DNA of 35,609 nt, taken from contig WTHV01000073.1 of NCBI GenBank assembly GCA_011525265.1, forward strand, positions 1-35,609, written 5' to 3'. Made by a program: the position numbers and the translations under genes. The DNA comes from Alphaproteobacteria bacterium (GTDB lineage: Bacteria > Pseudomonadota > Alphaproteobacteria > Puniceispirillales > Puniceispirillaceae). Below, one piece after another: positions 6,339-32,166 of the stretch. Under the pieces are notes generated by a model. It saw nothing but the letters and a program-made list of their open reading frames with translations. It made no database searches and was not told where the DNA came from. Each line of letters opens with the position of its first letter. Within the stretch, counting starts at the first letter, position 1.

Positions 6339-6464
6339 GCCTATGATCTAGCCTATTCACCACTGTTTAAAACCTCATCACCTTAAGCCAAACATAACCA
6401 TAAAGGATAATCTTTAAAAATAAGTTAACAGGCGTTGAAAGCCGCGCATAGAAATGATTTCAGC

Positions 6465-7432: not shown

Positions 7433-8002
7433 ATGAGACATTTTTTAAGACGCCTTTTCGTGACTTCTGCGCTTGTGATAAGCCTTCAGTACGCTGTGCC
7501 TGCTTTGGCGCAAACTGATGATGCTGTGCTTGATAATTTATTCAGCACATTACAAGAGCTTGACGATCAAGGTGATGTGTCGCGTATTGTGGCAGAAATT
7601 TGGACAAGATGGTCTACCCACCCAAGTGAGCAAAGCATTACCGCACGCCTCAATAGGGGTGTTGCCATGATGAATCAAGGTGACTATGTGCATGCTGAAG
7701 GCTTGTTTTCTGACATTATTGCAGAAGACCCTACTTTTGCAGAAGCATGGAATAAGAGGGCGACACTCTATTATATCCAAGGCAAATTTGCTGAATCACG
7801 CTATGATATCGCACAGGCATTAATCCGTGAGCCACGCCATTTTGGCGCTTTATCTGGTCTTGGACTCATCGAATTATCATCTGGGAATTACGAGGCGGCT
7901 TTGCGCGCCTATGAGCAAGCGGCTGAGGTTAATCCCCATATGACGCAAGCAAATGAGATGATTAAAACACTCAGCGAAAAGCTACGTGGCCTCGCTCTTT
8001 AG
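7433..8002 (+). CDS. secreted TPR-repeat protein, 189 aa
   Basis: The N-terminal signal peptide is MRHFLRRLFVTSALVISLQYAVPALA/Q. Three TPR-like units are visible (GDYVHAEGLFSDIIAEDPTFAEAWNKRA; QGKFAESRYDIAQALIREPRHFGAL; SGNYEAALRAYEQAAEVNP). Confidence 0.75.
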   Translation: MRHFLRRLFVTSALVISLQYAVPALAQTDDAVLDNLFSTLQELDDQGDVSRIVAEIWTRWSTHPSEQSITARLNRGVAMMNQGDYVHAEGLFSDIIAEDPTFAEAWNKRATLYYIQGKFAESRYDIAQALIREPRHFGALSGLGLIELSSGNYEAALRAYEQAAEVNPHMTQANEMIKTLSEKLRGLAL

Positions 8003-8010: not shown

Positions 8011-11000
8011 CTAATTCAATAACAAAGATAAAGGCCCGATTGGCGCATCAGTATTAATACCCACAGATGTTGCCGCAAGCGGTGTGCCATCATCTTCTGT
8101 ATTGGCCTCTTCGACAGGCTCTTCGCCGTCCTCTGCCTCTTCATCATCTAGGATATCGTTTGAGATAGGTGCTTGTTCAAAGACAGGCAAGCCAAGCTGA
8201 ATGATCGTATCAGTATCCACCTGAACCACGCCCAAGGCAGAGCTATCTCTAACACCAAAGCTGTTGGCAAAATCAGATGCCAAAGCACCATCACTCAGAC
8301 CCATATCAATGGCATCTTGTGCGATAACCTGCTCTGGTGCAACGCCTGGCGCCTCAAGTGTAATGCGTCTATCATTCGATAAAATAGCCTGCTCTAGGCG
8401 CACAGATGAAACAGGGTTAATCGCCACTGTGTTTGATGCACGCATAGTTTCAATCACATTATTTAATTCTTGTTCAACTGACTGCTCTGCCACCTGCAAG
8501 ACATATGGCAGGCGATAGAAAGCAAGCGTGCCAGAACAATTCACCTGTGGGTTATTATAGTTAAAGGTGAAATCAAGAACCGCATTGCCATTACCAATAA
8601 AGCTTGGCGCGCCTGTACAGCGATAATCTTCATCACGCTGACCTTGTAATAAAGCGCCATCAGAGAAATAGCCGGCATCATTTTGCGATAGCAACCATTC
8701 ATTCGGACTTAACATATTATCCATCAAGCGACCAACGCGCGCATCAAAAGCGCCCGCAGAAATATAGGCATCATCACGAATTGTGCCCTCTGTTACCGTA
8801 AAGACGTTTGATAATGGGGCATCAAAAGCAGCGCTATTGGCAATTAATCTTTGGACATTCACACCAGCTTCTGCCTCAATACCAAGCATTGTGCCAACAG
8901 CACGTGCACCAGCATTTTTGCCTTGAATATAGATATCAAGCGCATCAGAGCCATTATAATCAATCTCGTTCAAATTCGCATAAGCATGAACATTAAAGCG
9001 TATATCACCATTACCACCAAAGGTGATATCCGCATTGCTATTACCGCCATCTTGAATAGAGGTCGCATTAATTGTGACAGCATCAGTTGTGGTATTATTC
9101 GTCACCACACCAGTTAGTGTAACCGTATCAGAGGCATCGATTAACAAACGGCCCGCACCAAGATCTATAACTGACCCATCGCCAATTGTTACATTTTGAT
9201 AACCAAGACTATCGGCAAGAGAATCTGCATCAATTTCAAGATTACCACCAGATGTTGAAAGGCTTGTATTCTCGGCCATAGTGAAATTATCTGCCACCGA
9301 GGCAAGGATATCACCACCGCCTGTTGAGACTGAACCAGAAATGGCCATATTGTCACCAGATGAGAGGTTTAACACTGCGCCATTTGTATCAATGCCACCA
9401 ACACCCTCAAGATTCAAATCTTCAAATGAACGCAATGTCACAGAGCCGCCATTCGTATCAAGAGACCCAACAACCTTTAAGGTAGAGGCAACCGCCATAT
9501 CTAAATCACCATTGAGATCAGCCCCTGTCAGGCGCATTGGCTGGTCAAAATCAGTATAGAGCCATGCCCCATCTGTTTGGCTTGTCACGGTGAAGGTTGC
9601 GTTATCATCATTGATGGTTGCAATATCAAGTGCCTTATTCTTCTTAAGCTGATCACTATCGCCATCAGCAGGCTGCTGACCAATCGCACCTTGTGCTGAG
9701 AGGGCGACATATAAGCCTTTAATATCAGTCGTGGTATCAAGCGCATTATCCAAAATCGCACCAGGGCTAATCAGGTTAATCGCATCACGTGAATAGAAAG
9801 ACCCGACATTCACATCACCCGTTGCCTCGGTGAGGTAAATACCATCGCGTGAACGACCTGATAATGTGGAGCCATTATCCACATCGACCACAAATTGCTT
9901 ATCACTTGCCCCAATACGGCCTTTACCTGATTCAAGCAAGATATTCTGACCAGAGACAACCGTGTTGTTATCGTCTCTACCATTTAACAGATTGCCATCC
10001 ATCTTAATGCGGACATCACCACCTGCCTCAGCACGCTCGATAAGGGTATTTGTCTCAGAGCCTAAATAGACGACATCATCGGCAGAAATATTCACATTGC
10101 CAGAGGCACTAACATCAAAATCCTCATACATGGAAATCGTCATAATGCCTGTTTCATTGTCATATTGAGCATCTTCAGATTCAGCTGCCGCCAAGGCAAG
10201 ACGAGTGGTATTATCCAAGTTATTAATATCGTGATCAGCATTACCTTCTGAGAATAGATCCACTGTAAAGTTATGCGTTAACCGACCCAATGAGCCATTA
10301 TCAACATTGATCGTGATGTTATTAGCAGACACATTTGTGCTTTCAATCGCCAATGTTGTATCAGCAACCTCTTTGAATTCAATCACTGGAATTTTGTTAT
10401 TCAGCTGATCGTCTGTCCATTTAAATCCATTTGTGATAGAGGCGATCTCATCTTCGGTCGCACTATAAGAGAAATTATCATTATAAGATGTCGGGTCGCC
10501 AAATTTCTCATAGCCCGCTTGATATCTTGTTTGTTGTGCGGCTTCAAAATTCGCAATGCGTGTTGCATTATCATCAAGGGCAGAACGCTGGTCAGCAGTG
10601 GCTGTGTAAGAGAAGTTGGAATCATACGCATCCCAGCTTGTTTCATTATCAGAATTTGTGCTGACATTACGAAGCGCGAAATAGTCATTATAGAGCGTTT
10701 CAACCTGATCTTGATAGGTCTCAATCGTATTGTCTTTCTTTGAATCTGCCGCTGTGCCTGTCAGCCCCATCTGATCAACAAGGGCATTAAGGTCAGCTAT
10801 AGCAATCTCATCATCAACCTGCTCAGAATTACCATCAAGCAAGTCGCCATTCACGACTGTAATTGTGACATTGTCACTTGTGATCAATTGGTTAATACGC
10901 AAATCACCGGCTGTCTCTTCGACATTAATATTGCCGCCACCTGATGCGATTGACAAAGTGCCGCCATTTTCAGCATCTGTATTCACGCGGAAGATACCGC

Positions 11001-14000: not shown

Positions 14001-17000
14001 CTTGCAATCTCGTTGCCATTAATTGGGTATCTTTTGTGCTTTTCAGCGCTGCCCCAGATTGCACCGCAATGGTCGCATTATTGGTAAAGGTAATATCTGA
14101 CTGGCGTCCTGAATCAATCGGAATGGCTGTGTTGTTCCAGATACGGCTTTCTGTATCAATGGTATGTTCTTGATAATAGGCTGTTGCCAAACGCCCTGAA
14201 TAGACATCCAATGTACCATCAATTTCTGTGCCAGAATTTGTCTCAAAGATAACGCGGTCAGTCTTTGTGATATTGGCAACGGCACGCGCCTCTGCACCAG
14301 CACCCACAAGACCATAGGTTGAGGTAAAGGCACGCACATCAACAAGCGGGGCAGATTGTGTCTCGATAACCGCATCACTCCAGCTTGTTGTCAGGCTGGC
14401 ATTATCTTCAAAACGAATTGTGCTATTGGCCACGCCTGTTGCCATACTGTCTGAACGCGGTACTGAAATCGCACCACCGACATTAGTTTCTGCCTCATCA
14501 TCAATCTCAAGCCCAGAGAAAGCAGTAATTTGCGTCAGGCCACGTGCCGCGCTTGTACCCGTGCCAGTGATGGTTGAGAATTCGCCAATTGTGACATCGG
14601 TATTTTGCGTCAAATTCGCACGGCTTGTCCCAAGTGCCACAGCAATCGCACCGCCACCACGAACCGCAAAGTTCGGATCATTGACCCCTTTTTTCGCCAT
14701 TTTATTTGACGCATTAATGACGATATTCGTAGCTGATAAATCAAGATTATCACCAAGTGTCACATCCAAATCAGATGAACCTGTTGAGACGCCAAGACCT
14801 GCTGAAACACTGACCCCACCAACATTTGACGCATCAATCGCATGGTCAAACTGATCTTCATTCAACGCTTTGATCGTCGCATTATCAGTGGCTGAAAGCG
14901 TTGCTCGATTACCAGATGTGCTATTGGCAAAGGCAACGCGTGTGATGGCTGTATTGGTTGTTTGTGCCTCACCACCTGTGGCGGCAATCGCACCACCTGC
15001 ACCAGCGACCGTATCTGTCTTAGCATTCTTGGCACTTGTAGCTTGAACAGTAAGATGTTCCCCAGTTTCGATTGTGACGCCGCCGCCAATGGCAATTTGG
15101 CTATCTGAGGTATCATCAAGATAAGAGAAGTTCGCACCAATCGCAGCAAGGCCAACTGATAGGCCTGTTGTGCGTGATTGAGACCTCGTGCGGTTATTGG
15201 TTGTAATCGCCGTGGAACCTGCATCAGTAATCGTGCTGTTTGTGCCGATATTCACCGATGTATCAACATCAATATCTGTATCAGATACAGTCGCATTTGC
15301 CCCGACAAGTGCACCGCCAGCACCAGCAATTGTATAATTATTTGCCGCCTCTAATGCGCCATCACCTGCTTGCGCCGAAATCGTCACATCATCACCTGTA
15401 ATGGTGACATTATCATAAAGCTCAACTTCAGAATCGCGTGTGACATCAACCTCTGTGAATACGCCGCTTAAGCCAACACCTGCGGCAACAGCAACACCCA
15501 CAGCATCAACATCATTGCTTGTATTCTCATAAGATGTGATTTGAACGCTGCGATTAGAATAAATCGCACTATTTGTGCCAATAGACGCTTTGGTCTCGCC
15601 CTCATCAGAGATATTCACAAATGCACCAACAAGCGCGCCTGCATAGCCCAAACCAGCAGACACAGCCTTTGCTTGATGAGAAGAGTCATTGCGTGCCGTA
15701 ATCAGCACATCACCTGTACGATTATCATTTGTCCCAAATTGCGTATTTGCCCCAACAACCGCAAGAGAGTCACCAGAGGTGTTAATATCAACAACAGATA
15801 TACCAGCGGCAGCGATACCACCTGCGACGGCGGCAACCAATACTTCTGCGTCTATATCACGGTCAGATGATACTGTGATATCGGCTGTATTGCTTGCCGT
15901 ATTAATCGTGACATTATCCCCGATTTCAGCGCGGGCATTTTCCTCAAGATTGACCTGTGCGATTGAGGCAGCCAAGCCAACAAGACCGACAGAAGCGCCA
16001 ACAACAACTGAATGGACACCTTCAACTGAAACGCTATCATCATCTGGCAAATCAATTGAAATACCATCACCTGACAAAATAGCCGCATCAACTGTAACGC
16101 CTGTTGTATTATCGATTGAGGTGTTGCTGCCAATGCGTGATGTCACAGAACCGGCATAATCAGCGACCGCAACAAAGCCGCCAACGCCGACCGCACCAAT
16201 CGCAGCACCACCTGAGATTTGTGATAGCTCTAATGTTTCTGTGGCCTCTACGCTGACATCACCACCTGCAATGATTGTTACATTACTGCCAATCTCTGCG
16301 AGTGTGCTGTCACCATCTGTGCCTTCAACATCTGATTGAATGCCAGAGGTTTGTGCCATGGCAAGCTGATTGGCTTCAGCATCATCATCTTCTGTATAGG
16401 CTCTTGTATTTGTCATGGCATTGGCTGAGTCATTATCTGTCTCATATTCGCCGCGATCCTTAGAGGCATTTGCCTCAGCATCTGCCAGCATATTGCCATT
16501 ATCATTTGTCAAACTATCAGAGGCATTATCTGACATACCGCCACCGATCAATGTCAAAGCAACAGAGCCTGCTGCCCCAAGGCCAACGCCGCCCGCAAAT
16601 GCGATACCCTGATTTGAGATATCTTTGCGGCTATTGGCATCAACTGACACATCATCATTGGCAGTCAAGACAACATCATCACCAATTTTTGCTTGCACCG
16701 TATTGCGCGTGACAGTTGCCACAAGACCAAGACCAACACCCGCTGCACCGCCAATTGCTGCGGCACCTGCTGCACCTTGTGTGGTCACATTATCATTGGC
16801 CGCAACACGCACTGTTTGGGTTGCACCATCGCTATAGCCTGAAGCTTGGTTGATAAGCGCATCATCGCCAATTTCTGCAATTGTTGATGTCTTTAAGATG
16901 TTGATACCAACAGAGCCTGTCAGGGCAAGACCCATACCACCAGAGAAGCCAATGATATTTTGATTAATGCTTGTATCGCTATTTGCTTCGACAAGTAAAT

Positions 17001-23000: not shown

Positions 23001-26000
23001 CATTATCAAGAACGGCTTGGGTCTTTTCAGCTACAATGATATTCAGCGCAATACCTGCACCAACACCAACGCCGCCTTCAGACTCCTCCTCATCATCGCC
23101 GCCGCCATCACTATCAGATTGAGTCGCATTATCGACGCTTTCTTCGATATCGTCTTTGGTTGCTGCTAATGAAAAAGCGCCATCTTGCTTGAACATTTTC
23201 ATGTCCTTCAATGCGCGCAGCTCTTTTGTTACCCCAGACCAAAGCCCCTTCACCTCGCCCACAGTTGCCTTTGAATTGGCATCATATTTGCTTTTGGCAC
23301 CTGCCACGATTAGCACATCACCAGAGGCGGTGACATCCGTGCCAGAATTGATAATAGCTTTGGTGTTATTCTTTAGAACGATATTCAAGCCAACTGCACC
23401 AGCAAGCGCAAATTCGCCTGTGCCAACACCTGCCACCGCATCAGCGTAAATCACATTGGTGCTATCAGTTGTGTTATCCTCTTTGACCTTATCAAGCATG
23501 GCCGCACGCACGGTCAAATCGCCAGAGGTAATGGTGACATTATCACCGACCTCAGCGATATTTTCATTATCGACAATATTCAAGCCAACACCGCCGCCAA
23601 TATTATAATCACCATCTGTTGCAGAGGCATCAGCATCAGCAGAGAAATCAGCATTACTCAAGCTTTGCACTGTAACAGCGCCAGAGCCGGCATTTAAGGT
23701 CACCCCATCTGCGAGTGAGGCTGTGGCATCAGATTCGGTATAGGTCACACCCATTGCCGCACCGACTGTGATCTTTGAGCTAGATTCATCCTCGCCATCA
23801 CCACCAATGGCATCATCGGCATCGGTGCTTTGGGCAAAATCATAACTTGTGACACTGTCACCTGGTTCTACGACAGTGGCGATAGAGGCGTTATTTGTAG
23901 CGCCATCAGTATCAGATGACATTTGTGATGAGAAATCATAAGTGGTCGCATCATCATCTGAGTCAGACGTATAACCTGCAATCACAGATGAGCCTGCGGC
24001 AGACGCATCTTCTGTGCTGTTATTACTCGCATTATCAGGCGTGCTATCATCTGAATCACTATCGCTGCTATCATCATCTGAGGCTATTTTCGCAGATGAT
24101 TTTGCCGCCGCATTAATCTGCTTATAGGTCGAGGCGGTAACAGTGATATCACCGCCATTTGTTGAAACATCACGCTGAATTTCGGCTGTGTTACTGTCAA
24201 GGGCGACAGTGACAGCGGCCGAAATACCAATCGCGGCATTGCCATCTGAATTCGCTTGTGCCGTGCCATCAGCGGTAGCGGCAGATTTCAATGTTTGGGT
24301 TGATGAGACACGCACACCGCTTTGTGTTACAATGCCGCTCGCAGATTGTTCGATAATGGCACGCGCTGTATTACGCGCGGCTGTTACGGCCGCAAGTGGG
24401 GCAATTGAAATGGAACCTGCACCAGCACCTTTGGCTTCTGATTCTGTCGCTGAGCTCTGAATAGCGGCAATGCTGATATTATCTGGATTATCACTTCCTG
24501 TGAAACGTGCGCCGCCTTCGAAAATAGCCTCAACATCATTTTTATGTGTCGCAACAGCTATCGAAGCGCCAACGCCCAATCCACCACCATCATTGAGATC
24601 AAGCTCTGAATCTGTTTCAGATGAGTTATCACTATTGAGGGATTTAAATAATCGGCCAGATACCAAACCCGCCTTATCCGTTCCATCAGCAATGACCTTT
24701 ACCTCAGTATCATTTTGCGCTGTCAAGGTGAGGTCTTCATCCAAATCAAGTGTGGTATTATCACCAATGCGCGCGGTGGTATCATTCACTTCATTAATGC
24801 CAACAGCAATCGCACCCGCAATGCCGACACCATTATCACCGCCGCCTTGGCCAACACCAGAAATGCCATAAACAGATGAACGGCTCTGATTATCCATCTC
24901 GCCTGTGTAAGAGGTTGTTGTAGCTGTGACATTTAAATTATCTGCAGTCACAAGCACATTGGCATTCGCGCCACCATCAATCTGGCTTGTTAAGGTGCTT
25001 TCGAAAATTTGGATACCAATACCGGCCTGTCCCCCAAAGGACGCATTATCTGTGCGCCCCGAAGCAACAGACTGTGCTTGTGAGACAGCTTGTGCGGCCA
25101 CTGTCACATCATCGCCTGTGATTTCTGGCGCATCTGCTATGCTTGTGTTTGAGACGCCAATTGTGGTGTCTGTGTTATTGGTGATCTCGGCATAGGTAAC
25201 AGCGCCGCCTAGCTGGAAATTAGTGTCACTCTCTGGGCCAAATGAATCTGGCACCACATCAAGCATATCTTGGAAATTCGACTTCAGCGCATCTTGCAAA
25301 TTATAGCCAAGAAAATCGACATCCAACGCATCGGTATCATCCACACCTGCATCAAACTTTGATGTGACAGTCTCGGTAAAATTATCATCTTGGGTCGCGC
25401 GTGCCGCTGTAAGGGCAGATAATTCTGAATCAGCTAGGATGGCAATATCGCCAGAGGCTGTGATGCTCGCATTATCCAAAACAGAGGTTGAGGTATTATC
25501 ATTAATGATAGCCACACCAACCGCAATTTGACCTGAACTACCTGAAATACCAAACGCAGATGAATCAGCCACTGTTGTGATATTGGTTCTTGTACGCGTG
25601 CGCAACATGACATCATTGGCTGTGATGGCCGTATTGTCACCCATCTGCACAATAGCCTGATTATCAATCGCAGAAAAAGCCCCTGTAAAGGCAATGCCAA
25701 CTGATTGAGCGGTCGCTGTCACTGTTGATAGAGTCACGGCCTCTGCGGTGACATCTACATCACCTGTTGTAGCGGTGAGGGCTGTATCATCAGATAGCGT
25801 AATCGATGATTTAGAGGTCGTCACAGCCACAGAGACATCTGCCGGCAAGAGGCTAGCAAGATTTGCCCAGCCTTGTTTTGACAGGTCAGTGTTAATTTCT
25901 GAACGGCTATTTAAAATAATCGTATCATTCGCTGTTACGTCAGAGCCATCAATCACGATATTTGAAATGGCATCACGTGCATCAAATTGCACAAGCACGC

Positions 26001-27705
26001 CCCCTGAATAGCCAGGTGCTTTTTGCTCTGCCACGGCTGAGAGGGTGATATTATCACTTGCGGTGATTGTGCTTGATGATAGCACAGAGATTTCCGCATT
26101 TGCTTGGGCGGTTGGGTTATCATAGGCCCCATCAGGGTCAAATCTGGCATAAGCATCAAGGGTCACATTGCCGCCTGTCAGGCTCGTGCCAGTTAAGGTG
26201 ATAGAAGCATTATCCCTGTCATCTACATCAATAAGAATAGCGCCTGCCTCACCAGAGCCGCTCGCACTGGCATTGATTTCAGCCCCGTCATTGGCAATCA
26301 CAATACGACCATCAAGGGTGATATCACCCGCATTATAGGTGCCTGTTGATCGGCTTGTAAGAAGCGCGCCTGCGCCAAGCGTGATATTATCTGATTGCAA
26401 GATGATATTACCTGAATCAGCAATAGAGTTTGCTGTGCGGTGCGCTGAGGCATCACCTGCCGCACTCACGCGGCGGCTTGAAACCGTAATATTATCTGAG
26501 ATAGTAATGCTGTTTGAGGCTTGTAAGGTAAGCGCGCCCGCATTCCAGCTTGTGTTATTATCAGCATCCGCTGAGCCGCCATCTGTTGTGGCATCACGTA
26601 ATAAATCAGCCGAAATCACAATATCTTCTGGGTCAATTAGCACCGCACCATCTGTGCCATCTTGAGCCGCCGCAGATAAAGTACCACCTGCTAGCTCCAC
26701 AAGACGTTGTGCTGAAAATTCAACAAAGCCGCCATCACCTGACGTACCACCATCCGCAGATAGGCGCGCACCGCGGCCTAAAATCGCGGCATCATCGGCA
26801 AAGGTAATCACCGTGCCACCATCACTATTGACGCCCTGACCATCTGCAGAGAGATCAGCGCCATCCGTGATTGCGATATCATCACCAGCGCGCACATCAA
26901 TCATTCCGGCATCACGATTATCCGTGCCATCTGCGCCAAGGCGGCCAGCAAGCATGACATCATCATCAGCCACAATGCTGATACCGGCTTCGATATTGGA
27001 CATATCAATAACGGCGCCGCCAAGGCCGCCTTCATTCATATTCACCAAATTTTCAATAGCAACAACGCCATTTTGGCCTGTTTCAACAATGCCTGTTACG
27101 GTGACATCATTGGCAGAAATTGCGACATTATTTGTGGCATTCACCGTGCCTCTGACTGCGATAAGGCCATGAGATGATAGGGGTATATCACTATCTTGGA
27201 CGCGCGTGACTTGCGGTGCGCTTATCATGCCATTCGCACCAAACATATTTGTCATGAAATCTTGTGTCGGCGTTATCAGCTTGGCAGAGCCAACATTCAT
27301 CACACCTGTCTTACCAACCACAACACCATGCGGATTCAAGAAAAAGACATCACCGCCAATTTTCCCATCCTTATAGGCATTCAGGTAACCATCAATCACA
27401 GTTTGCTGGTTATGAACCATATTCATCAGGGCCGTGGCCCCATCTGGCAAAAACAGATTTACCTCATTACCCTCATAGACATTGAAGATGGAAAATGAGT
27501 TAAAACCCGTATGTCCAAGGACAGTGCTTGTGTAGACATCTGTCACATTCTGGTTGATGACAAGGTTCGTATTTGTGCGCCCATCAAGGACAATTTGCGC
27601 ATCTGATGACTGCGCAATCGCATAGGGCGGAAACGCAAATTGCAACATACCGGTAAAGTATGTTGCAATTCGAAACCCTTTTGATTTGCGCCACTCACGA
27701 AACAT
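8011..27705 (-). CDS. giant two-partner-secretion exoprotein (TpsA; filamentous haemagglutinin / LktA-like adhesin class), 6,564 aa
   Basis: This is a single open frame of 19,695 nt. The N-terminus MFREWRKSKGFRIATYFTGMLQFAFPPYAIA/Q looks like a signal peptide. TPS-domain motifs follow (GFNSFSIFNVYEGNEVNLF, GGDVFFLNPHGVVVG). A TpsB gene lies upstream on the same strand. Confidence 0.9.
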   Translation of the reverse strand: MFREWRKSKGFRIATYFTGMLQFAFPPYAIAQSSDAQIVLDGRTNTNLVINQNVTDVYTSTVLGHTGFNSFSIFNVYEGNEVNLFLPDGATALMNMVHNQQTVIDGYLNAYKDGKIGGDVFFLNPHGVVVGKTGVMNVGSAKLITPTQDFMTNMFGANGMISAPQVTRVQDSDIPLSSHGLIAVRGTVNATNNVAISANDVTVTGIVETGQNGVVAIENLVNMNEGGLGGAVIDMSNIEAGISIVADDDVMLAGRLGADGTDNRDAGMIDVRAGDDIAITDGADLSADGQGVNSDGGTVITFADDAAILGRGARLSADGGTSGDGGFVEFSAQRLVELAGGTLSAAAQDGTDGAVLIDPEDIVISADLLRDATTDGGSADADNNTSWNAGALTLQASNSITISDNITVSSRRVSAAGDASAHRTANSIADSGNIILQSDNITLGAGALLTSRSTGTYNAGDITLDGRIVIANDGAEINASASGSGEAGAILIDVDDRDNASITLTGTSLTGGNVTLDAYARFDPDGAYDNPTAQANAEISVLSSSTITASDNITLSAVAEQKAPGYSGGVLVQFDARDAISNIVIDGSDVTANDTIILNSRSEINTDLSKQGWANLASLLPADVSVAVTTSKSSITLSDDTALTATTGDVDVTAEAVTLSTVTATAQSVGIAFTGAFSAIDNQAIVQMGDNTAITANDVMLRTRTRTNITTVADSSAFGISGSSGQIAVGVAIINDNTSTSVLDNASITASGDIAILADSELSALTAARATQDDNFTETVTSKFDAGVDDTDALDVDFLGYNLQDALKSNFQDMLDVVPDSFGPESDTNFQLGGAVTYAEITNNTDTTIGVSNTSIADAPEITGDDVTVAAQAVSQAQSVASGRTDNASFGGQAGIGIQIFESTLTSQIDGGANANVLVTADNLNVTATTTSYTGEMDNQSRSSVYGISGVGQGGGDNGVGIAGAIAVGINEVNDTTARIGDNTTLDLDEDLTLTAQNDTEVKVIADGTDKAGLVSGRLFKSLNSDNSSETDSELDLNDGGGLGVGASIAVATHKNDVEAIFEGGARFTGSDNPDNISIAAIQSSATESEAKGAGAGSISIAPLAAVTAARNTARAIIEQSASGIVTQSGVRVSSTQTLKSAATADGTAQANSDGNAAIGISAAVTVALDSNTAEIQRDVSTNGGDITVTASTYKQINAAAKSSAKIASDDDSSDSDSDDSTPDNASNNSTEDASAAGSSVIAGYTSDSDDDATTYDFSSQMSSDTDGATNNASIATVVEPGDSVTSYDFAQSTDADDAIGGDGEDESSSKITVGAAMGVTYTESDATASLADGVTLNAGSGAVTVQSLSNADFSADADASATDGDYNIGGGVGLNIVDNENIAEVGDNVTITSGDLTVRAAMLDKVKEDNTTDSTNVIYADAVAGVGTGEFALAGAVGLNIVLKNNTKAIINSGTDVTASGDVLIVAGAKSKYDANSKATVGEVKGLWSGVTKELRALKDMKMFKQDGAFSLAATKDDIEESVDNATQSDSDGGGDDEEESEGGVGVGAGIALNIIVAEKTQAVLDNDADLLGSNTGAVSVTATAETTTKTSAFAGAKPSEAGGDDAKTSLDAAVSVGILLKDVDAYVGTGSAINATDNITIASSAITKTISTAKGEVTASETAVGASVAVGVALENVDTRLNRDLSTTGGFSLSARADSQDIALADAVAAGAVVDKYASKIGKTTDQLTQSTNQIADVNNKPTSLEALNGGFTGGDGASFDTTGSDAATGQTSGGEAQQSGSINIAASVAVNWSEHAARATTADNLSITVGDDFALQAHNDSNYRTRGSGMSVFADQSIGVGVGLLKTGQTTKAEVGDGVTITNSQSSGDVTILASTSENQGIDSDNNSFRSFASAEGIAGAGGGELGVAGALGLVVSTDTQSALVGRGVTITAPGEVTVKSTATNKIVNRAWAIAVASDVTCDDPGNCGGDGGDKTAVGASIAVNVVVDTNKAEIGEDSTITAGDNATILAEDLSSAAGEFTLDPEDNSTTTEDYLTTNYTAILQNSSYYAEAIAGGVAQGGNAGTGSLAVTVSKGSTKAIIGEGVVISADDVTLKAYNESDAKQLVGAVAISTDKKAIGASISGIYLREDVAAIVGDNGDSDDNTTTRLVANSGDVTILASAEQETQTYMAAGGVSGNDLALAGAFGFNVMDSDVEARIVEDAVIQATNGDISVNADHDANIRNFALAISGSGGGNSAGGSLAVNVFLADKKAIIGNAANGNDISVNAAGNVNVGVNARQEITNGIISAAVSTSNNAISGALSANVIKGESYALVQEGADINDNSTLNSASTTQSVDVAVSDNTTLFDLTGTLAASSSTSVGVALAGNVMWKDVKAGINSTVIADDNVMLSANTEQNLTATTVGIAASTGGFSGAGSVSFGLIKSTTYADLGSDAVITTDGSVGIHAGDDTDIFMLEPAASFSSGGTALAGAVGAAVFMGTTKARILDNATITAKGQEAMQVEIDSTYTSSPLLDGIFGGGDNETRNALADFNDNFTFENIKDLFLTETRNTETRRGVSVSAVSDQDVISIAASGAVSSDSAIAISLSAGVGINTTEASIGDGATINATNTSPHSDQDVTVRAISDTYWVDLSAALGVGTGSAGVGVGADVVVQVKNTDAYIAENAIVKANRDVIVEANARDKVINSAATIGVGSTAGVAGTASVGVIVNDTNARIDGDVRAENDVAVDANATSELIQIAGAVGGGGTAGIGASFGVAVVKGTTTAIIGNTAQVDAVGTTSVTADSTENSVAAVLAGGIGGTVGVSVSAGIKVHDSTTKAEILGGVNQRYDNASYTTQDVAVRATNSVTTIDVIGGIGGGGTVGVGVSLNALVVHNKAQASIQGVVSAVRDISVEADSAKSTKNFTLAGAAGGTVSVAGNVAVILVGAQADEETDEQMTGSGDNNLADEADSRNNALIVSNIINDNESDGDYARTGNEFSEVASTIDSKQAETNIGTRFNNEDNTSSLNQTKAFIASSAIVNAGRDLTVEAEDTTETIFTAGAIGGAGVVGVGVTVGVVLVNNTAQAYVGDDAEVNASRNMLIRARTSESVNSGALSAGGAGITSVQGVVMAQKTTSKTHAFIGDNASVNQSDNDSAQNVAVLAESDTDLLSVSGSGGGALVGVGITGDSVVLDKETKAFIDDNARVSSEGDITVDADAETDIIQVALSINGGLVGVTGSAGVVVAKNNTSASIGDNAVIFARDSIRLESKDDIEIDGIVVAGSGGAVGVSGAFGVYVVKSENRAEIGDNATITALAQGSGLDAATGTVDNSSTSIVTKSTRDQDNNSKEDNFTQVALSFDTQNASGLSIAAVTSEDMNFAPVGLGFGAVGVAGTVAVTTSSSTTEALVGAGTVINQDNDDGASDQDVRLLAASNTLLNNISSGISAGAAAVSLDSDTQVFAKTVRARMLGDAYAKRDVSVEAKTDDTILQTMVSIAVGGNGQGGIVGVSVVNNTVTAEIGDNTTVEAGDDLTVKTDSDIAMIQTAGNVAGGAGGGIGASLGVLVAKSTNTARIGDGANVTARDDLLVEANSDTSINQNIIGFSGGMGLALTGSVGINILKTSTIAEIGDDALINQASGYSDGATQTVRVAANDNVTTQGAAGAAAIGGAAGVGLGLVATVTRNTVQAKIGDDVVLTANDDVSVDANSRKDISNQGIAFAGGVGLGAAGSVALTLIGGGMSDNASDSLTNDNGNMLADAEANASKDRGEYETDNDSANAMTNTRAYTEDDDAEANQLAMAQTSGIQSDVEGTDGDSTLAEIGSNVTIIAGGDVSVEATETLELSQISGGAAIGAVGVGGFVAVADYAGSVTSRIGSNTSIDNTTGVTVDAAILSGDGISIDLPDDDSVSVEGVHSVVVGASVGLVGLAASIAQVNLEENARAEIGDNVTINTASNTADITVSSDRDIDAEVLVAAVAGGIAAAGISVVDINTSGDSLAVVGANTQFGTNDNRTGDVLITARNDSSHQAKAVSAGLGYAGALVGAFVNISDEGETKASIGTNSAIYSNRSVQITSYENTSNDVDAVGVAVAAGVGLSGVFTEVDVTRDSEVELYDNVTITGDDVTISAQAGDGALEAANNYTIAGAGGALVGANATVSDTDIDVDTSVNIGTNSTITDAGSTAITTNNRTRSQSRTTGLSVGLAAIGANFSYLDDTSDSQIAIGGGVTIETGEHLTVQATSAKNAKTDTVAGAGGAIAATGGEAQTTNTAITRVAFANSTSGNRATLSATDNATIKALNEDQFDHAIDASNVGGVSVSAGLGVSTGSSDLDVTLGDNLDLSATNIVINASNKMAKKGVNDPNFAVRGGGAIAVALGTSRANLTQNTDVTIGEFSTITGTGTSAARGLTQITAFSGLEIDDEAETNVGGAISVPRSDSMATGVANSTIRFEDNASLTTSWSDAVIETQSAPLVDVRAFTSTYGLVGAGAEARAVANITKTDRVIFETNSGTEIDGTLDVYSGRLATAYYQEHTIDTESRIWNNTAIPIDSGRQSDITFTNNATIAVQSGAALKSTKDTQLMATRLQAAETLGLDRDYLLVKSYGEAKNLYQAAGESITGGNYSDFYGSETTTGSAGVTIEGTVETGIKKDVSVTINAALSDYYVDDNGTTQRYTIQFDNESENPSNQWVLIDQRIVDQNIVFEADGDNDSRISPIVGYLNDNITVENASWTIDPEVDFAANVRAEIAALKEVLNAYTEGSIEQDESVDNGTDTTTVTTSSSYTTDQLSEMRNEVQSRITVLESSIALYGSEPVPVIKISDIEAATGNVKVVSDYLAGSGTINTPSGETVTITNNSPIALVVNDIDIPDVGGGNIIFNGVTVTTGAEVDTINLNNVPNGQTQGLTLISGENSADPSVTINNNFDSANAAYNPDSISDITAPAIALRTESTDGYGGIRNIRGTVTVNNETGSIFSQASIAAGTVDISSGGNYVFDADVNVFHVGGDPRTNTAFSSPTGGSTSDTISDYNNGNGVNTISEMDNRAFTGGCDPLRKEITGLTYADGYSATSVLIATLLNQPTSHMYAPTFTTHASNCGGEFASASNTNSSSVIAASNDVFISANNLNINGLVQAGITNKSITVSQSEVDSALSANPTANIVTVKSVNKTLEGSIVGSNDNRYVSGDIKLKYDREKEELFVTTADVKGGNLTVAGRIISTGNGKLVAADGYGQISITNNSDKKLSLSNLSTGGMEGKITIVDSLRDNGLGSSLITEYTRNAGTLTVTNNQGSSSVDNVVSNPQSSYSPESGARFNFMSGQQTVDRETNYRTKTTKRLWGVSAFDVGNDFWSGQAIDNTETQSLSGEQLPEGDYILVDTSDSSDYTFKADQIETERTLVLDESGTDRCWWGGFLNMVRYCRYYNTTAFVVGSLRYNYHSLRADNDIAIGFSGNEDGGSISVTSNGGVVISGQIDNANGTTSITASSGDILNATQTDSISTGNLTLAATSGSIGTAANPIRINQSETDNLTISAGQNVNVASPAGSLYINSINVGGTGAIRLSANQNVELKGSGVLTGHTIDIVAEEGTATSAGGIFRVNTDAENGGTLSIASGGGNINVEETAGDLRINQLITSDNVTITVVNGDLLDGNSEQVDDEIAIADLNALVDQMGLTGTAADSKKDNTIETYQDQVETLYNDYFALRNVSTNSDNETSWDAYDSNFSYTATADQRSALDDNATRIANFEAAQQTRYQAGYEKFGDPTSYNDNFSYSATEDEIASITNGFKWTDDQLNNKIPVIEFKEVADTTLAIESTNVSANNITINVDNGSLGRLTHNFTVDLFSEGNADHDINNLDNTTRLALAAAESEDAQYDNETGIMTISMYEDFDVSASGNVNISADDVVYLGSETNTLIERAEAGGDVRIKMDGNLLNGRDDNNTVVSGQNILLESGKGRIGASDKQFVVDVDNGSTLSGRSRDGIYLTEATGDVNVGSFYSRDAINLISPGAILDNALDTTTDIKGLYVALSAQGAIGQQPADGDSDQLKKNKALDIATINDDNATFTVTSQTDGAWLYTDFDQPMRLTGADLNGDLDMAVASTLKVVGSLDTNGGSVTLRSFEDLNLEGVGGIDTNGAVLNLSSGDNMAISGSVSTGGGDILASVADNFTMAENTSLSTSGGNLEIDADSLADSLGYQNVTIGDGSVIDLGAGRLLIDASDTVTLTGVVTNNTTTDAVTINATSIQDGGNSNADITFGGNGDIRFNVHAYANLNEIDYNGSDALDIYIQGKNAGARAVGTMLGIEAEAGVNVQRLIANSAAFDAPLSNVFTVTEGTIRDDAYISAGAFDARVGRLMDNMLSPNEWLLSQNDAGYFSDGALLQGQRDEDYRCTGAPSFIGNGNAVLDFTFNYNNPQVNCSGTLAFYRLPYVLQVAEQSVEQELNNVIETMRASNTVAINPVSSVRLEQAILSNDRRITLEAPGVAPEQVIAQDAIDMGLSDGALASDFANSFGVRDSSALGVVQVDTDTIIQLGLPVFEQAPISNDILDDEEAEDGEEPVEEANTEDDGTPLAATSVGINTDAPIGPLSLLLN
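14250..25700 (-). repeat. array of ~54-aa (~160-nt) degenerate coding repeats inside the TpsA gene (estimate 60-70 units)
   Basis: The recurrent unit is G-x-[VA]-G-[VI]-x-[GA]-x-x-[GA]-V-x-[VI]-x-x-N-x-T-x-A-x-[IV]-G-D-[ND]-A-x-[VI]-x-A-x-x-[DN]-[VI]-x-[VI]-x-A-x(8-12)-[AG]-G-G. Four consecutive units (54, 58, 53 and 54 aa) lie at ~17940-18600, for example GLVGVTGSAGVVVAKNNTSASIGDNAVIFARDSIRLESKDDIEIDGIVVAGSGG. The complement of the IGD(N/D) codons (atcaccaat / atcgccaat) recurs every ~160-165 nt, for example near 16680, 16868, 17032, 17192, 17828, 17988, 18320 and 18485. The boundaries and copy number were estimated by eye. Confidence 0.7.
26715..27609 (-). other. TPS (haemagglutination-activity / secretion) domain of the TpsA
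   Basis: Residues ~33-330 carry NLVINQNVTDVYT, HTGFNSFSIFNV, VNLFLP, IDGYLNA and VFFLNPHGVVVGKTGVMNVGS. This is the conserved order of TPS-domain motifs, with NPHG in place of the usual NPNG. The boundaries are approximate. Confidence 0.7.
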
Positions 27706-27740
27706 CGCTTTTGGCCTATCCTGTTTTTCGCATAATAAGG

Positions 27741-28067
27741 CTACCCGCGATTATCATCTGCTGATTGCGCATCATCGACAGCTGGTGCTGATAATGTTTG
27801 CAAACATTGCACATTGATAAGATCAACACGTCTGCCATCATATTGAATGAAAACCGTGTTACATTCATCATTGGCAGCTTTGTTGATAATATCATTATAA
27901 ATCTGAGCTGAAGCTTGCCCCGCACCACGCTCAATGCCAAGGCGAAGGCCTGAATCATAGACATTATTTTGCAAATAAGACCAGCCTATAAGCAAGAATG
28001 CCATTAGTGAAATCACAAACCAGCCAATCAAAAAAACTGTGACAAGATTTAATCCTTCGCGAAACAT
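27741..28067 (-). CDS. small N-terminally membrane-anchored protein of unknown function, 108 aa, between tpsB and tpsA
   Basis: The track ORF begins at TTG 28091. ATG 28067 is preceded by GAGGTAGAAGAG and is preferred. The sequence is MFREGLNLVTVFLIGWFVISLMAFLLIGWSY, then a ~80-aa soluble part with two Cys (DEC...VQC) and an acidic tail. I recognise no family. Coding status rests on ORF length, the RBS and its operon position. Confidence 0.55.
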   Translation of the reverse strand: MFREGLNLVTVFLIGWFVISLMAFLLIGWSYLQNNVYDSGLRLGIERGAGQASAQIYNDIINKAANDECNTVFIQYDGRRVDLINVQCLQTLSAPAVDDAQSADDNRG

Positions 28068-28162
28068 CTCTTCTACCTCGCATTTATTCAATTATTACTA
28101 ATATTTACTAGCATAGTTTGATTCCGCATCGCAAGTTTTGCGCGATATCTCACTAACCTTTA

Positions 28163-31027
28163 TCATTGCAACCTGAAACGAGCTGATAATGAGAATTGGA
28201 AAAGCTCATCATCATAGAATTCCTTTTCCTCTTCATGCACAGAGCCATCAAGCGGTTCTGACCAATAGACATCAAAGGTTAACAGATTGAAAATAGACGG
28301 AATTTGCAGACCAACACCATAGCCAGACCAGTAATCTGCGCGGCTGCGGACTTTATATTGTGACTGCGCCATCATATGGTCAACAAAGAAATAAGGCTGT
28401 GCTGATGGCATGAAATCTGGCAAAGACACCTCTTCCCAATTTGCCAAATCTGTGCGCAATTCACCTGAGACAAAATACCCTTGATAGCCAGAGGATTCAC
28501 CAGGCTGATAGGCGCGCACTGATGAGGGGCCACCAACTGATAGAATTTCAGATGGCATATTGATCATATCTCTTGCATCAGAATAGAGAAATTTTGCCCG
28601 CCCATTAAGCGTCCATTTCTCTGATAGGAAATGAGAGGCATTGGCATCAATATCAAGTTTTTCCATCCATTTTTCGCGTTCAGGAATTTGCGTGACAATA
28701 TTCAACGCATGAATAGATGGCGCAACAGAAATAGCCGTTGTGCCATTATTAAAGCTGTATGGTATGGCGAGTGAATATTTGCGCACCTCAGATTTTGAGA
28801 GCATATCGCCCGTTACAGGCTGAACAAGGTCACTTTTACTCACCCCATAGGAGGCTGAGAGATAGAAAGAATAATCATCGCCAAAATAGACAGGCTGAGA
28901 GAATGTGGCGGCAAAAGAACTTGCTGAACCACGATAGCCGACCGTCTCTTCTGAGCCAGCAACAATTTTGGTATCAGAGTTTGATAGCGCAAGCGAAATA
29001 TTGCGCCCCTTATGGTCAAGCGGCATTGAAAAACTGCCTGACATAGAGGTTGAGCCTTTACTATCTGAGTAAGTGAAAGCTGTTTCATCATCTCTGCCAA
29101 TCAGATTATTTAAGGTAATAGACAAGGCATTTTGACGCCAATCAGATGTTTGGTTGGCATAATTATTTATCGAAACAGACGGTAATTCCACCTTATCAGG
29201 CTCTGCCACATCAACAAAAATATCTGTTTCACCAAAATCAGAACCTGGCGCTAATTCCGTCGCAAGCTTGCTTTTGTTTGATAAATTATAGGTGCGAATA
29301 GATTGCTCTAGCGCTTTGAGTGAGATGAAATCACCTTCTTTGGCGGCCAAATGCGCCAAGACAAATTCTTCTGAGAGATCATCGCGATTTTCAAGCGTAA
29401 TTTTTCCGACTGTTGCCTCGACAAGCTGAATTTGCACAACACCATCTGTGACAAGCTGTTCTGGCAATAAGGCGCGTGATAATTCGAACCCTTTGTCAAC
29501 ATAAAGCGCATTGACCCTATCCAAAATGCTCTTAATCGCCTCAAGCGTAATCGGCGTGCCAAGCACCTGTTTTCGTGCCGCACGCAATTCACTAGCTAGC
29601 AATATCGCACTTGGCGAGAAATCAATATCTGTGAATGTCTTTGGCGATGTTGCGGCAATATCAAAACCGGGGGTGAGAGAATAAGGCGGCAAATCAGGCT
29701 CAGATATGAGGGCAGGTGCCTCTGCGGCGGTTTTTTCCTCTTCTGATATGTCATCTTTTGTGGGCACATCATCAATAATAATAGCAGGCGCATCAGCTTT
29801 ATCTGCTTTATAATCAGCGACCAAATCATCTATCGCCTCTTTTATGACCTCTTTTGCATCAAGCGTATCTGCTATTTCTGGCGGGGTAGGGCGAATTTTT
29901 GGACGGGCAATAGAGACGATAATCTCATCTTTTGCCTCATCTTTATCTTGTGTGTTGATAGCCTGTTCAAGCGCGGTGACATCAAGCGTCTTATTGGCAT
30001 CATCTATGACGATATTTTCGACAACATCTGCATTTGCCACAACAGGGCGTTCACGAATAATTTGTGAAAGGCTTGCGCTTCTGGCTTGCCCTTTTTGACC
30101 ATCTTGTGATTGCGGCTCCACACGAACAGTGATTTGGGCACCAATATCTTTTGCACCAACTTCATAGCTTGGGCCATTCGCATTTGGTATGACAATATTA
30201 TCACGAAGCCAAATAAAGCGCGTATCACCCTCACTATCACCTTCATTATCATCGATAAATTGATATTGCGCTATCAGCGCTTCACCTGTTTGAGGCGTGC
30301 CGATAATGGCAAGATCTTCAATACGTGGCGGGTAATTTGCTTCCAAAATAGTGGCATTTACCTGAGCTGTACGACTATCTGCTATTTGCGCATCATTGCC
30401 TTCATAAACAAGCTGGGCTGAGAGTGATTTCCCCACATCTGCACGTTGCAAACGATAACGGCTTTTGCTTGCGCCCGTAATTGGCAAGCCATCGCGGTAC
30501 CATTGCAAACGCAACCTGCCACCTGCCTGCTGATAGGCTTGTTCATTCACCGCATAACGAGCAATCAACTCTGCATCTTCTTGGGCTGTGCCTAGAATTT
30601 CAAGAGCTGTAATAATGGTGCCTGTAGCGGGTGGGCGCAATGGCAAAAGGACTGTCATCTCAGGGGCATCAGCCATTTCAGACTTTGTTTTCACGCGCAC
30701 CGAAACCACAGTATCATCATCATTTGCGATGATAGAAATCTGTGTAACATCTATGCCTTGCGCCTTTAATTTAACAGCCAACGTCTCTGTAATATCTGCC
30801 AAATAAGATGACCGCACACAACCCGTCGAAAGCACATTTGATAAGGCACTCTGCTGTTCACTTGACCATGCGAAATTATGATGTATTTGAATATAGCGTG
30901 GCAGGATATCACAATCAGATGCCGCAAATGCCTGTGAAGGCGCCATGAATAACGGTGCAACCAGCATTGCCATGGCAAGTAGGGAGACCTGTATAAAAGC
31001 CAGCTTCCCTAGCCATTTTTGCCTCAT
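28163..31027 (-). CDS. TpsB-type outer-membrane transporter (ShlB/FhaC/HecB family) with long N-terminal extension, 954 aa
   Basis: The ORF is trimmed from TTG 31048 to ATG 31027. The signal peptide is MRQKWLGKLAFIQVSLLAMAMLVAPLFMAPSQAFA/AS. From about residue 465 it has a POTRA-like region (LEAIKSILDRVNALYVDKGFELSRALLPEQLVTDGVVQIQLVEATVGKITLEN) followed by a beta-barrel region. The barrel region includes SINNYANQTSD, NLIGRDDE and the L6-type motif GGPSSVRAYQPGE (VRGY-like). Confidence 0.85.
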   Translation of the reverse strand: MRQKWLGKLAFIQVSLLAMAMLVAPLFMAPSQAFAASDCDILPRYIQIHHNFAWSSEQQSALSNVLSTGCVRSSYLADITETLAVKLKAQGIDVTQISIIANDDDTVVSVRVKTKSEMADAPEMTVLLPLRPPATGTIITALEILGTAQEDAELIARYAVNEQAYQQAGGRLRLQWYRDGLPITGASKSRYRLQRADVGKSLSAQLVYEGNDAQIADSRTAQVNATILEANYPPRIEDLAIIGTPQTGEALIAQYQFIDDNEGDSEGDTRFIWLRDNIVIPNANGPSYEVGAKDIGAQITVRVEPQSQDGQKGQARSASLSQIIRERPVVANADVVENIVIDDANKTLDVTALEQAINTQDKDEAKDEIIVSIARPKIRPTPPEIADTLDAKEVIKEAIDDLVADYKADKADAPAIIIDDVPTKDDISEEEKTAAEAPALISEPDLPPYSLTPGFDIAATSPKTFTDIDFSPSAILLASELRAARKQVLGTPITLEAIKSILDRVNALYVDKGFELSRALLPEQLVTDGVVQIQLVEATVGKITLENRDDLSEEFVLAHLAAKEGDFISLKALEQSIRTYNLSNKSKLATELAPGSDFGETDIFVDVAEPDKVELPSVSINNYANQTSDWRQNALSITLNNLIGRDDETAFTYSDSKGSTSMSGSFSMPLDHKGRNISLALSNSDTKIVAGSEETVGYRGSASSFAATFSQPVYFGDDYSFYLSASYGVSKSDLVQPVTGDMLSKSEVRKYSLAIPYSFNNGTTAISVAPSIHALNIVTQIPEREKWMEKLDIDANASHFLSEKWTLNGRAKFLYSDARDMINMPSEILSVGGPSSVRAYQPGESSGYQGYFVSGELRTDLANWEEVSLPDFMPSAQPYFFVDHMMAQSQYKVRSRADYWSGYGVGLQIPSIFNLLTFDVYWSEPLDGSVHEEEKEFYDDELFQFSLSARFRLQ

Positions 31028-31269
31028 ATTTCTTAAAAAAAACAACAAATTAACCGTTTTCTTGGCAAGAAAATAAACCGCTAGAAATGCCCGTTAAGGT
31101 CAAAATACTAGACTATGATTAAGTTTATGCTAAAGTTTAGTCCAATTGGCAAGTTTCACCTTTTGAAATATATCAAAATTATGATGCAAAATCGCAAGAC
31201 TGATTGTGCTAATTGGATAGCGATAAAGCTAGAAATAGAGCCTATATTATTAGTTTAAGAGAGACTTTC

Positions 31270-32145: not shown

Positions 32146-32166
32146 GCACCGCGCTTAACGCGGGGC
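32146..32166. terminator. possible bidirectional stem-loop between convergent genes (weak)
   Basis: GCACCGCG (32146-32153) pairs with CGCGGGGC (32159-32166): 8 bp with one A:G mismatch and a perfect CCGCG/CGCGG core. The loop is CTTAA. It sits between the TAA of the plus-strand gene (32143-32145) and the minus-strand gene, and it contains that gene's stop codon (32155-32157). No flanking U-tract is present, so intrinsic-terminator function is doubtful. Confidence 0.25.

Follow-up and report, generated by a model that had tools for sequence, protein, structure and literature searches.

Gene order and integrity of the locus

The window analysed here, a 35,609-nucleotide stretch (contig WTHV01000073.1, assembly GCA_011525265.1) from a marine alphaproteobacterium of the Puniceispirillaceae (SAR116), carries a locus for two-partner secretion (TPS) in which a predicted outer-membrane transporter (TpsB) is encoded together with a small membrane protein and a giant exoprotein (TpsA). 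From its sequence we assign the locus to the LktA family as a type Vb (two-partner) operon. The type Vb route, the LktA family and the giant size of TpsA are already known; new here are a module at the N-terminus of TpsB and the small inner-membrane protein.

The three genes lie co-directionally on the minus strand, span about 23 kb and follow one another in the order tpsB (954 residues), small gene (108 residues) and tpsA (6,564 residues), with gaps of 95 nt between tpsB and the small gene and of 35 nt between the small gene and tpsA (Table 1). The list of open reading frames thus bore out to the base the strand, sizes and gaps reported in the initial annotation of the window. The tpsA frame is intact over 19,695 nt and starts at an ATG. 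The other two frames can be read from TTG or from ATG: the small gene (27741..28091) encodes 116 residues from TTG and 108 from the ATG at 28067, which is preceded by a GAGG Shine-Dalgarno sequence, and tpsB (28163..31048) encodes 961 residues from TTG and 954 from the ATG at 31027. All three products have Sec-type N-termini. A terminator scan found no terminator-like sites between the three genes, and over the window promoter and terminator scans gave counts at background level, with no Rfam matches.

Table 1. Positions of the three genes and their parts in the window (aa, amino-acid residues; AF2, AlphaFold2; HMM, hidden Markov model)
Feature	Position	Strand	Basis or description
tpsA, LktA family exoprotein (by sequence)	8011..27705	-	6,564 aa, 666.5 kDa, pI 4.05
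Predicted TPS secretion domain core, aa 55-204, FxxPxG/LktA type	27094..27543	-	NF012204, TIGR01901
Shaft of divergent LktA-type 53-residue repeats, aa ~600-4400	14506..25908	-	NCBIfam, self-comparison
Candidate allelic (mosaic) cassette within the shaft, aa ~576-1747	22465..25980	-	DNA comparison
C-terminal 2,164 aa, no internal repeats, three Cys pairs, acidic tail	8014..14505	-	self-comparison, searches
Small gene, 108-aa predicted bitopic membrane protein	27741..28067	-	translation, 73 homologues, AF2
tpsB	28163..31027	-	954-aa Omp85/TpsB-family predicted outer-membrane transporter with N-terminal extension; coordinates include the stop codon
TpsB signal peptide, aa 1-35 (...SQAFA before AS)	30923..31027	-	read from translation; presumed cleavage
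TpsB extension domain 1, aa 36-134, invariant C39/C70	30626..30922	-	alignment, AF2
TpsB two tandem Ig-like domains, aa 135-330	30038..30625	-	PF23197, AF2
TpsB acidic Pro-rich linker, aa 331-450	29678..30037	-	alignment, AF2 disorder
TpsB core: two POTRA (aa ~451-610) and ShlB-type barrel (aa ~611-954)	28166..29677	-	HMMs, Foldseek

An open frame of 6,564 codons cannot have arisen by chance, and we treat it as real. That it represents an assembly artefact or a decaying pseudogene is hardly credible, even though the contig is metagenome-derived, the gene is repeat-rich and a stop or frameshift falls within it in two related metagenome-assembled genomes (MAGs). The window contains no N bases and tpsA no near-identical tandem DNA repeats, so that repeat collapse is unlikely. 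A scaffold from an independent assembly is collinear with the locus and 99.4-99.9% identical over most of its length (one short terminal block is only 97.4% identical, and the scaffold has three N gaps). Intact orthologues of 6,561, 6,717 and 6,221 residues are called in other assemblies, and the ratio of non-synonymous to synonymous substitution rates (dN/dS; rough throughout, since dS is saturated) stays below 1 along tpsA. An assembly artefact was rejected on these grounds. In the two MAGs (L005 ~14878 and L016 ~14849-14942) the giant frame is interrupted at the same poly-Gly/acidic hinge, which is homologous to window positions ~23050-23110 (TpsA residue ~1530); the breaks are, in this order, an in-frame TAA and a frameshift in a GGC-repeat run, and could reflect sequencing error, decay or slippage-prone switching.

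A giant LktA-type exoprotein

TpsA begins with a signal peptide (ending ...PYAIA before QSS), followed by a TPS domain that matched the LktA-type model NF012204 with 150.7 bits (cutoff 60, E 2.9e-44, profile positions 1-150 of 153) and TIGR01901 with 29.9 bits, just over the cutoff of 29.1. The Pfam model PF05860 did not reach E 0.01 on the window protein, although it did on a relative, and PDB searches with the TPS region found nothing. An FLPDG motif is present at about residue 84; a scan with the regular expression F..P.G listed positions 122 and 4993, not FLPDG. Self-comparison divided the protein into three parts: the signal peptide with the TPS region (residues 1-600), a shaft of divergent repeats (600-4400) and a region devoid of repeats (4400-6564). 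The repeats match LktA_tand_53 (NF012206) in 22 stretches in total, with up to 266.3 bits (cutoff 50) in the second quarter of the protein. In composition TpsA is rich in A, G, T, S, D, V and N and almost free of cysteine. As a rough estimate from the residue count, rather than a computed value, the fibre is probably more than 100 nm long. Together with the ShlB and POTRA_2 matches of TpsB described below, the LktA-type domain and repeats uphold the TPS/TpsB assignment of the initial annotation.

Residues 2400-3200 form the most conserved stretch of the shaft, being 79-93% identical in all relatives compared, while the C-terminal 2,164 residues diverge fast, with 30-36% identity to a syntenic orthologue. 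Between residues ~576 and ~1747 the gene has no DNA similarity to L002 and L004, two otherwise close relatives with 76% identity in the flanks, and yet shares 71-74% DNA identity with L011 and L014, whose TPS domain, small gene and tpsB are much further removed from those of the window. Such a pattern suggests old alleles exchanged by recombination. Residues 4400-6564 had no match in Pfam, NCBIfam or PDB, and when the C-terminal third served as query, the search missed the full-length orthologues and gave fragments and proteins of 2,300-3,800 residues with a similar composition.

The size of the protein had been taken to lie at or beyond the upper end of the known range, which proved overstated. 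A 2017 review of TPS gives ~100-650 kDa for TpsA proteins and 180-650 kDa for CdiA (PMC5422565), so that a TpsA of 666.5 kDa stands at the upper limit of what was reviewed, and among annotated genes it is no exception. Plasmid pCSC3H3 of Thalassospira marina carries a 26,298-nt gene (8,765 residues), annotated in RefSeq as 'filamentous hemagglutinin N-terminal domain-containing protein', whose LktA-type TPS domain is 42% identical to that of the window (tblastn, plasmid records). On a plasmid of Terrarubrum flagellatum, a 19,086-nt gene (6,361 residues) is annotated as 'leukotoxin LktA family filamentous adhesin', with a TPS domain 35-36% identical. Both systems are alphaproteobacterial, with LktA-type TpsA proteins of the same or larger size. 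They differ from the window in gene order, with tpsA before tpsB where the window has tpsB upstream, and in location, as they reside on large replicons annotated as plasmids (435-908 kb), whereas the window locus is conserved and chromosomal.

The closest named family member is LktA of Fusobacterium necrophorum, which is about 3,200 residues long, about half the size of the window TpsA. The two proteins share an FxxPxG/LktA-type TPS domain and LktA 53-residue tandem repeats, and lktBAC is also a type Vb three-gene operon with the TpsB gene upstream (bioRxiv 10.1101/534297). The arrangements differ in that lktC follows lktA, whereas the third gene of the window lies between tpsB and tpsA, with nothing on the same strand after tpsA. 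Furthermore, an N-terminal extension is not known for LktB, and the Fusobacterium system comes from an anaerobic pathogen. By this homology a membrane-active role of TpsA is possible. Taken further, TpsA would be an LktA-like cytotoxin or pore-former directed against eukaryotic grazers, phytoplankton or competitors, and the small protein would protect the producer or activate the toxin. The overlap of the best-conserved shaft stretch with Gly/Ala-rich hydrophobic segments at residues ~2,800-4,100 would fit such a function. We nevertheless find a cytotoxin improbable, given that no toxin domain or family was detected in the 6,564 residues and that the NCBI name for the family is 'filamentous adhesin'. 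The small protein lacks an enzymatic domain and hardly extends into the cytoplasm. It also varies very little, whereas TpsA is mosaic and evolves fast; a toxin-immunity pair would show the reverse and was rejected on this account. Moreover, the signalling genes next to tpsA, of the SiaA/SiaB/SiaC type (described below), fit the control of aggregation better. The lack of a toxin domain, the strongly acidic sequence and the conserved adjacency to this Sia-type module make a surface adhesin or fibre the most likely identity of the filament, ahead of a device for toxin delivery.

A very large TpsA in a three-gene locus with a TpsB and a small extra gene could also recall contact-dependent growth inhibition (CDI), with the small gene of a CdiBAI-like system encoding either an immunity protein or an accessory such as BcpO, whose gene belongs to the Burkholderia bcpAIOB locus (PMC5422565). 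This possibility is very remote and largely refuted. A motif scan of TpsA found no VENN, ELYN, NEALV or similar pretoxin motif, and its last 2,164 residues, matching no family or PDB entry, hold no recognisable toxin. No gene follows tpsA on the same strand, the next one encoding a convergent periplasmic protein with tetratricopeptide repeats (TPR), and the gene order beyond it is kept in a genome with a very different TpsA C-terminus (see the last section). Far from being polymorphic, the small gene is highly conserved, and it is located upstream of tpsA; the TPS domain is of the LktA type, not of the CdiA type. Hence, a CDI system was rejected for want of a pretoxin motif, a C-terminal toxin and a downstream immunity gene.

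The TpsB extension and the small membrane protein

The transporter core of TpsB is conventional and occupies the protein from residue ~450 onward, to which its ShlB and POTRA_2 matches are confined. ShlB (PF03865) matched residues 606-915 with 51.4 bits (cutoff 22.7, profile positions 1-310 of 311) and POTRA_2 (PF08479) residues 473-544 with 49.7 bits (cutoff 24); a second POTRA-like unit follows the first according to the AF2 model and a profile search. The sequence match to CdiB in PDB starts at residue 449, and the AF2 model aligned with BamA, CdiB and FhaC in Foldseek at E values of 1e-12 to 1e-14. The L6 motif reads VRAY (residues 837-840) and is invariant in 25 orthologues, with Ala replacing the Gly of VRG(Y/F).

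Preceding this core is a 415-residue module, which occupies the place of the usual ~50 residues of an FhaC-type N-terminus, namely a plug helix (H1) of ~20 residues and a 30-residue linker before POTRA1. Its first domain is predicted as beta-alpha-alpha-beta-beta-beta (AF2, predicted local distance difference test (pLDDT) 70-83) and found no relatives in Pfam or PDB, including a profile search against PDB. The Ig-like region is all-beta in the AF2 model (pLDDT 72-86), with dN/dS of ~0.15-0.3; its second domain matched PF23197 IG_AIR9 (E 5.5e-11, 42.6 bits, cutoff 27.5) and scored 38 bits with ZirU_fam, below that family's cutoff of 100 bits. A short conserved segment, VVENI..DADK.LD, separates the Ig-like domains from the linker, which is acidic (pI 4.05), rich in proline, variable in length and predicted by AF2 to be disordered over ~120 residues. 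The linker keeps two or three short hydrophobic runs with proline and acidic flanks (APAIIIDD, APALLSE/APALISE, EPVIIAD); these resemble strand-addition motifs and may, by analogy, match the POTRA-binding linker of FhaC. The alignment of orthologues and the AF2 model (mean pLDDT ~60) gave no evident conserved H1-like helix before POTRA1.

The extension is maintained in evolution. It is under purifying selection, weaker than that of the barrel (dN/dS ~0.11), and recurs in 34 full-length orthologues of 914-958 residues (58-100% identity); it is also present in the Parvibaculales. Apart from one orthologue, a metagenome scan with the Ig region recovered three multi-Ig proteins that are unrelated, and it revealed no further TpsB so extended; non-orthologous matches to the extension were only large multi-Ig proteins, and a fold search with the whole TpsB, dominated by the barrel, was uninformative on the extension. 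A 2014 survey of 12,869 Omp85/TpsB proteins listed no extra domain architecture on a TpsB-type barrel (PMC4104836).

The small protein consists of ~8 cytoplasmic residues and a hydrophobic helix of 23 residues, which we read as a signal anchor rather than a normal signal peptide because it is too long and has no cleavage motif, followed by a helical region of variable length and a nearly invariant segment (ASAQIYNDIINKAANxECNTVFIQYDGRRVDLINVQCLQ; motif IYNDIINKAANxECNTVF..RRVDLINVxCLQ). Two invariant cysteines, C69 and C88, fall in a predicted beta-hairpin. No other gene of the locus is as constrained as the small gene (dN/dS ~0.08, from dN 0.08-0.13 and dS ~1.0-2.4): in the closest pair compared the small protein is 88% identical, TpsB 66% and the first ~3,200 residues of TpsA ~60%. 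Its product has 73 homologues, one of them in the cultured SAR116 strain HIMB100; sequence searches of Pfam, NCBIfam, PADLOC and PDB found no relatives. The sequence starts of the small protein (MFREGLN, 28055-28067) and of TpsA (MFREWRK, 27694-27705) share MFRE, probably by coincidence.

The position of the small gene is equally conserved. Across two orders it always lies directly 5' of tpsA, at 25-35 nt in the two loci measured (the window and L028, a truncated contig) and ~220 nt in L031 (ERZ28496108 contig_13). Two more distant genomes keep it directly 5' of an LktA-type tpsA (6,221 residues in L031) that has no tpsB upstream, indicating that small gene and tpsA form the tightest unit of the locus. 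The full arrangement of extended tpsB (863-1,025 codons), small gene and LktA-type giant gene was found in the same order in all 22 other Puniceispirillales/Parvibaculales loci that have enough upstream DNA. Named homologues come from Candidatus Puniceispirillaceae, Puniceispirillales, strain HIMB100 and Parvibaculales.

An exhaustive profile search extended the relatives of the small protein to 97 representatives, about 20 strong and roughly 75 weak, all of them small, single-helix, two-cysteine proteins. The weak relatives that could be placed (L025, L026, L032 and L033) are not beside TPS genes. This broad 'family' is either only loosely related or not specific to TPS, and our claim is restricted to the strong subfamily. 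Two of the weak relatives, L026 (SRR919300) and L032 (bacterium DOLZORAL124_38_8), come from genomes rich in AT, in which no TPS genes lie close by; in L026, the reading frames next to the gene contain stops when translated with table 11, a hint of an alternative genetic code.

The TpsB proteins of the Thalassospira and Terrarubrum systems, of 597 and 550 residues, align only to residues 431-934 and 413-907 of the window TpsB, which makes them homologous to its core, and no homologue of the small gene was found in these giant loci. In Selenomonas pSRC7, the TpsB has 563 residues, and the gene that precedes the LktA-type gene encodes a DHH phosphoesterase. Since giants elsewhere have an ordinary TpsB and no small gene, the two deviations cannot be put down to size alone; Thalassospira and Terrarubrum contradict the idea that a huge substrate calls for the accessories, and it was rejected. 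Of the elaborated TPS variant proposed in the initial annotation, the argument from size is overstated, while the extension and the small gene stand: both are real, conserved across two alphaproteobacterial orders and absent from the other LktA-type systems examined. As far as we could find, the TpsB module and the small inner-membrane protein are both undescribed and lineage-specific.

A proposed export route and its alternatives

The best overall explanation, which we favour with slightly better than even confidence, is a type Vb fibre operon with two periplasm-facing accessories that escort or tether the substrate. Interaction, expression and export of the three products are putative here. 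Mechanistically, by family membership and as established for TPS, Sec would export TpsA unfolded; the POTRA domains of TpsB would recognise its LktA-type TPS domain, and the chain would be threaded through the ShlB-type barrel to fold outside the cell into a long, acidic, beta-helical filament. To this route the locus would add two parts. The small protein, anchored in the inner membrane with its helix and disulfide-clamped beta-hairpin facing the periplasm, would act as a holdase or escort by binding the N-terminal part of TpsA as it emerges; its hairpin would lend itself to pairing, as an added strand, with the TPS domain or with a POTRA sheet. The 415-residue TpsB module, with its Cys-pair domain, two Ig-like domains and ~120-residue acidic flexible tether, would likewise face the periplasm, help capture or hand over the substrate and possibly reach the inner membrane, so that together the two parts might bridge the membranes. 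In turn, the neighbouring SiaA/B/C-type partner-switch and class III cyclase may control the timing of fibre production.

A periplasmic, or in any case extracytoplasmic, location of both parts is suggested by the signal anchor with its ~8 cytoplasmic residues, the invariant Cys pairs and the continuity of the extension, by way of the disordered linker, with the periplasmic POTRA1. Their most likely role, by analogy, is periplasmic escort or tethering. Precedents come from Bordetella, where the inner-membrane-associated periplasmic protein DegP acts as a holding chaperone that aids export of FHA, and where the FhaC linker binds POTRA domains (PMC5422565). The FhaB/FhaC pair, the paradigm of two-partner secretion, resembles the window system in its Omp85-type TpsB with two POTRA domains, its beta-helical adhesin and its large C-terminal non-shaft region; it differs in having no dedicated small membrane protein and a TPS domain of the NPNL/NPNG class. 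In the Burkholderia bcpAIOB locus, a TPS system likewise includes an extra small envelope protein, BcpO, needed for TpsA function (PMC5422565). BcpO, however, is a lipoprotein or cytoplasmic protein in a CDI locus with toxin and immunity genes, and Pfam, NCBIfam and profile searches gave no sequence relation between it and the small protein of the window. The weak ZirU match of the second Ig-like domain recalls Salmonella ZirTSU, where the likeness is limited to the generic Ig fold and ZirT is not a TpsB.

Several observations weigh against the escort or tether model. The N-terminus of FhaC reaches the cell surface through the barrel (PMC5422565), so the Ig domains could be surface-exposed. 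The giant LktA-type systems above indicate that export of very large substrates does not generally depend on the accessories. At E 1e-8 to 1e-5, weak relatives of the small protein are found in loci without TPS genes. Co-occurrence of the three genes is all within related lineages and is not independent evidence. Finally, the AF2 models are of moderate quality (mean pLDDT ~60), and that of the small protein, a long helix followed by a hairpin, has low confidence past the membrane helix and falls below 50 in the hairpin.

Most of these points feed the main rival, which we consider unlikely: an ordinary two-partner system in which both oddities are unconnected with the secretion mechanism, the Ig module lying at the surface by way of the barrel as an adhesin or filament docking site and the small protein being unrelated and merely co-transcribed. 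The surface position of the FhaC N-terminus would allow it, Ig-like domains of AIR9/ZirU type are typical of surface proteins (compare the multi-Ig matches to the extension), and the other giant systems work without either part. Exposure of the module would, however, require a folded, disulfide-bearing unit of ~300 residues to cross the transporter's own pore, and a conserved H1-like plug helix is not evident before POTRA1. As for the small protein, its weak relatives away from TPS genes speak for independence, whereas its exact position 5' of tpsA, kept across two orders and in two rearranged loci, and its status as the most constrained product of the locus speak for a link to TpsA.

A stronger form of the escort or tether model, in which small protein, TpsB module and TPS domain are in contact as a three-component, envelope-spanning type Vb variant, is also unlikely in our estimation. 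If true, Sec export at the inner membrane and translocation across the outer one would be directly coupled, loosely like TamB with TamA, and the variant would define a new type V secretion subtype, so far confined to abundant marine Alphaproteobacteria. Type Vb is usually presented as a minimal two-protein machine, to which the locus contributes two more conserved components, including a dedicated protein of the inner membrane; they bear on the question of how an unfolded chain of great length gets through the periplasm when no energy source is available. SAR116 bacteria are among the most abundant surface-ocean heterotrophs and are treated as free-living plankton, yet they keep a ~23-kb surface-fibre locus next to a signalling module of the kind that controls Pseudomonas aggregation. 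The SAR116 genomics literature examined does not mention the locus. With the small gene present in the cultured strain HIMB100, the system is genetically testable.

Inheritance and genomic neighbourhood

The locus belongs to the vertically inherited chromosomal core genome rather than to an island, given the conserved chromosomal synteny and the gene order in related loci. The flanking genes are housekeeping genes (pyruvate kinase, NAD-dependent dehydrogenase, acrylyl-CoA reductase). Upstream, the order pyruvate kinase, dehydrogenase, M48 peptidase, hypothetical gene, tpsB, small gene and giant gene was the same in both relatives looked up, which share 58% and 66% TpsB identity with the window. 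Downstream, the order TPR, pirin, SiaA-like, cyclase, SiaC, SiaB-like and rhodanese is repeated in one further genome, whose TpsA has only ~30% identity over its C-terminal third. No tRNA genes were found in the window and no GC break was seen across it (GC 0.41-0.51). A genomic island was rejected on the basis of the flanking synteny and of these two absences, and the initial annotation, which had seen no direct evidence of one, is strengthened.

On the side of the tpsA 3' end, genes for a SiaB-like kinase (DUF6272), SiaC and a SiaA-like PAS-PP2C phosphatase cluster at 2167-6338 of the window, as they do in L029 (18792-22968). Between them lies the gene for the output enzyme, a class III adenylate/guanylate cyclase (PF00211) in place of the GGDEF cyclase SiaD. 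The module adjoins tpsA, and this adjacency is kept in the relative with a TpsA C-terminus only ~30% identical. In Pseudomonas aeruginosa, the TPS adhesin system CdrAB is likewise near to, or controlled by, a partner-switch of SiaA phosphatase, SiaB kinase and SiaC (CdrAB/SiaABCD), and SiaD activity raises cdrAB expression; the output enzyme differs, being a GGDEF cyclase there and a class III cyclase here. It is the conserved adjacency that suggests a possible regulatory link from the Sia-like module to the TPS genes.

Two predicted envelope proteins bracket the locus at positions kept in relatives: the TPR protein with a signal peptide at 7433-8002 (+), convergent with tpsA, and a lipoprotein M48 metalloprotease, LoiP/BepA-like by a weak match, at 32155-32991 (-) on the other side. 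Together they resemble the two halves of BepA, and a role in processing or biogenesis is possible. The gene at 31213-32145 (+), divergent from tpsB, codes for a protein with a single membrane helix, zinc ribbons on the cytoplasmic side, a Ser/Asp-rich acidic stretch and an outer domain that weakly resembles FxLYD; in L001 and L002 this position is taken by a gene of about the same size. A related shaft also occurs in another secretion context: in L030 (14-19451), a protein of 3,145 residues, truncated by the contig end and 34% identical to TpsA residues 3453-4674, is encoded directly upstream of secretin, T2SSE, T2SSF and pseudopilin genes.

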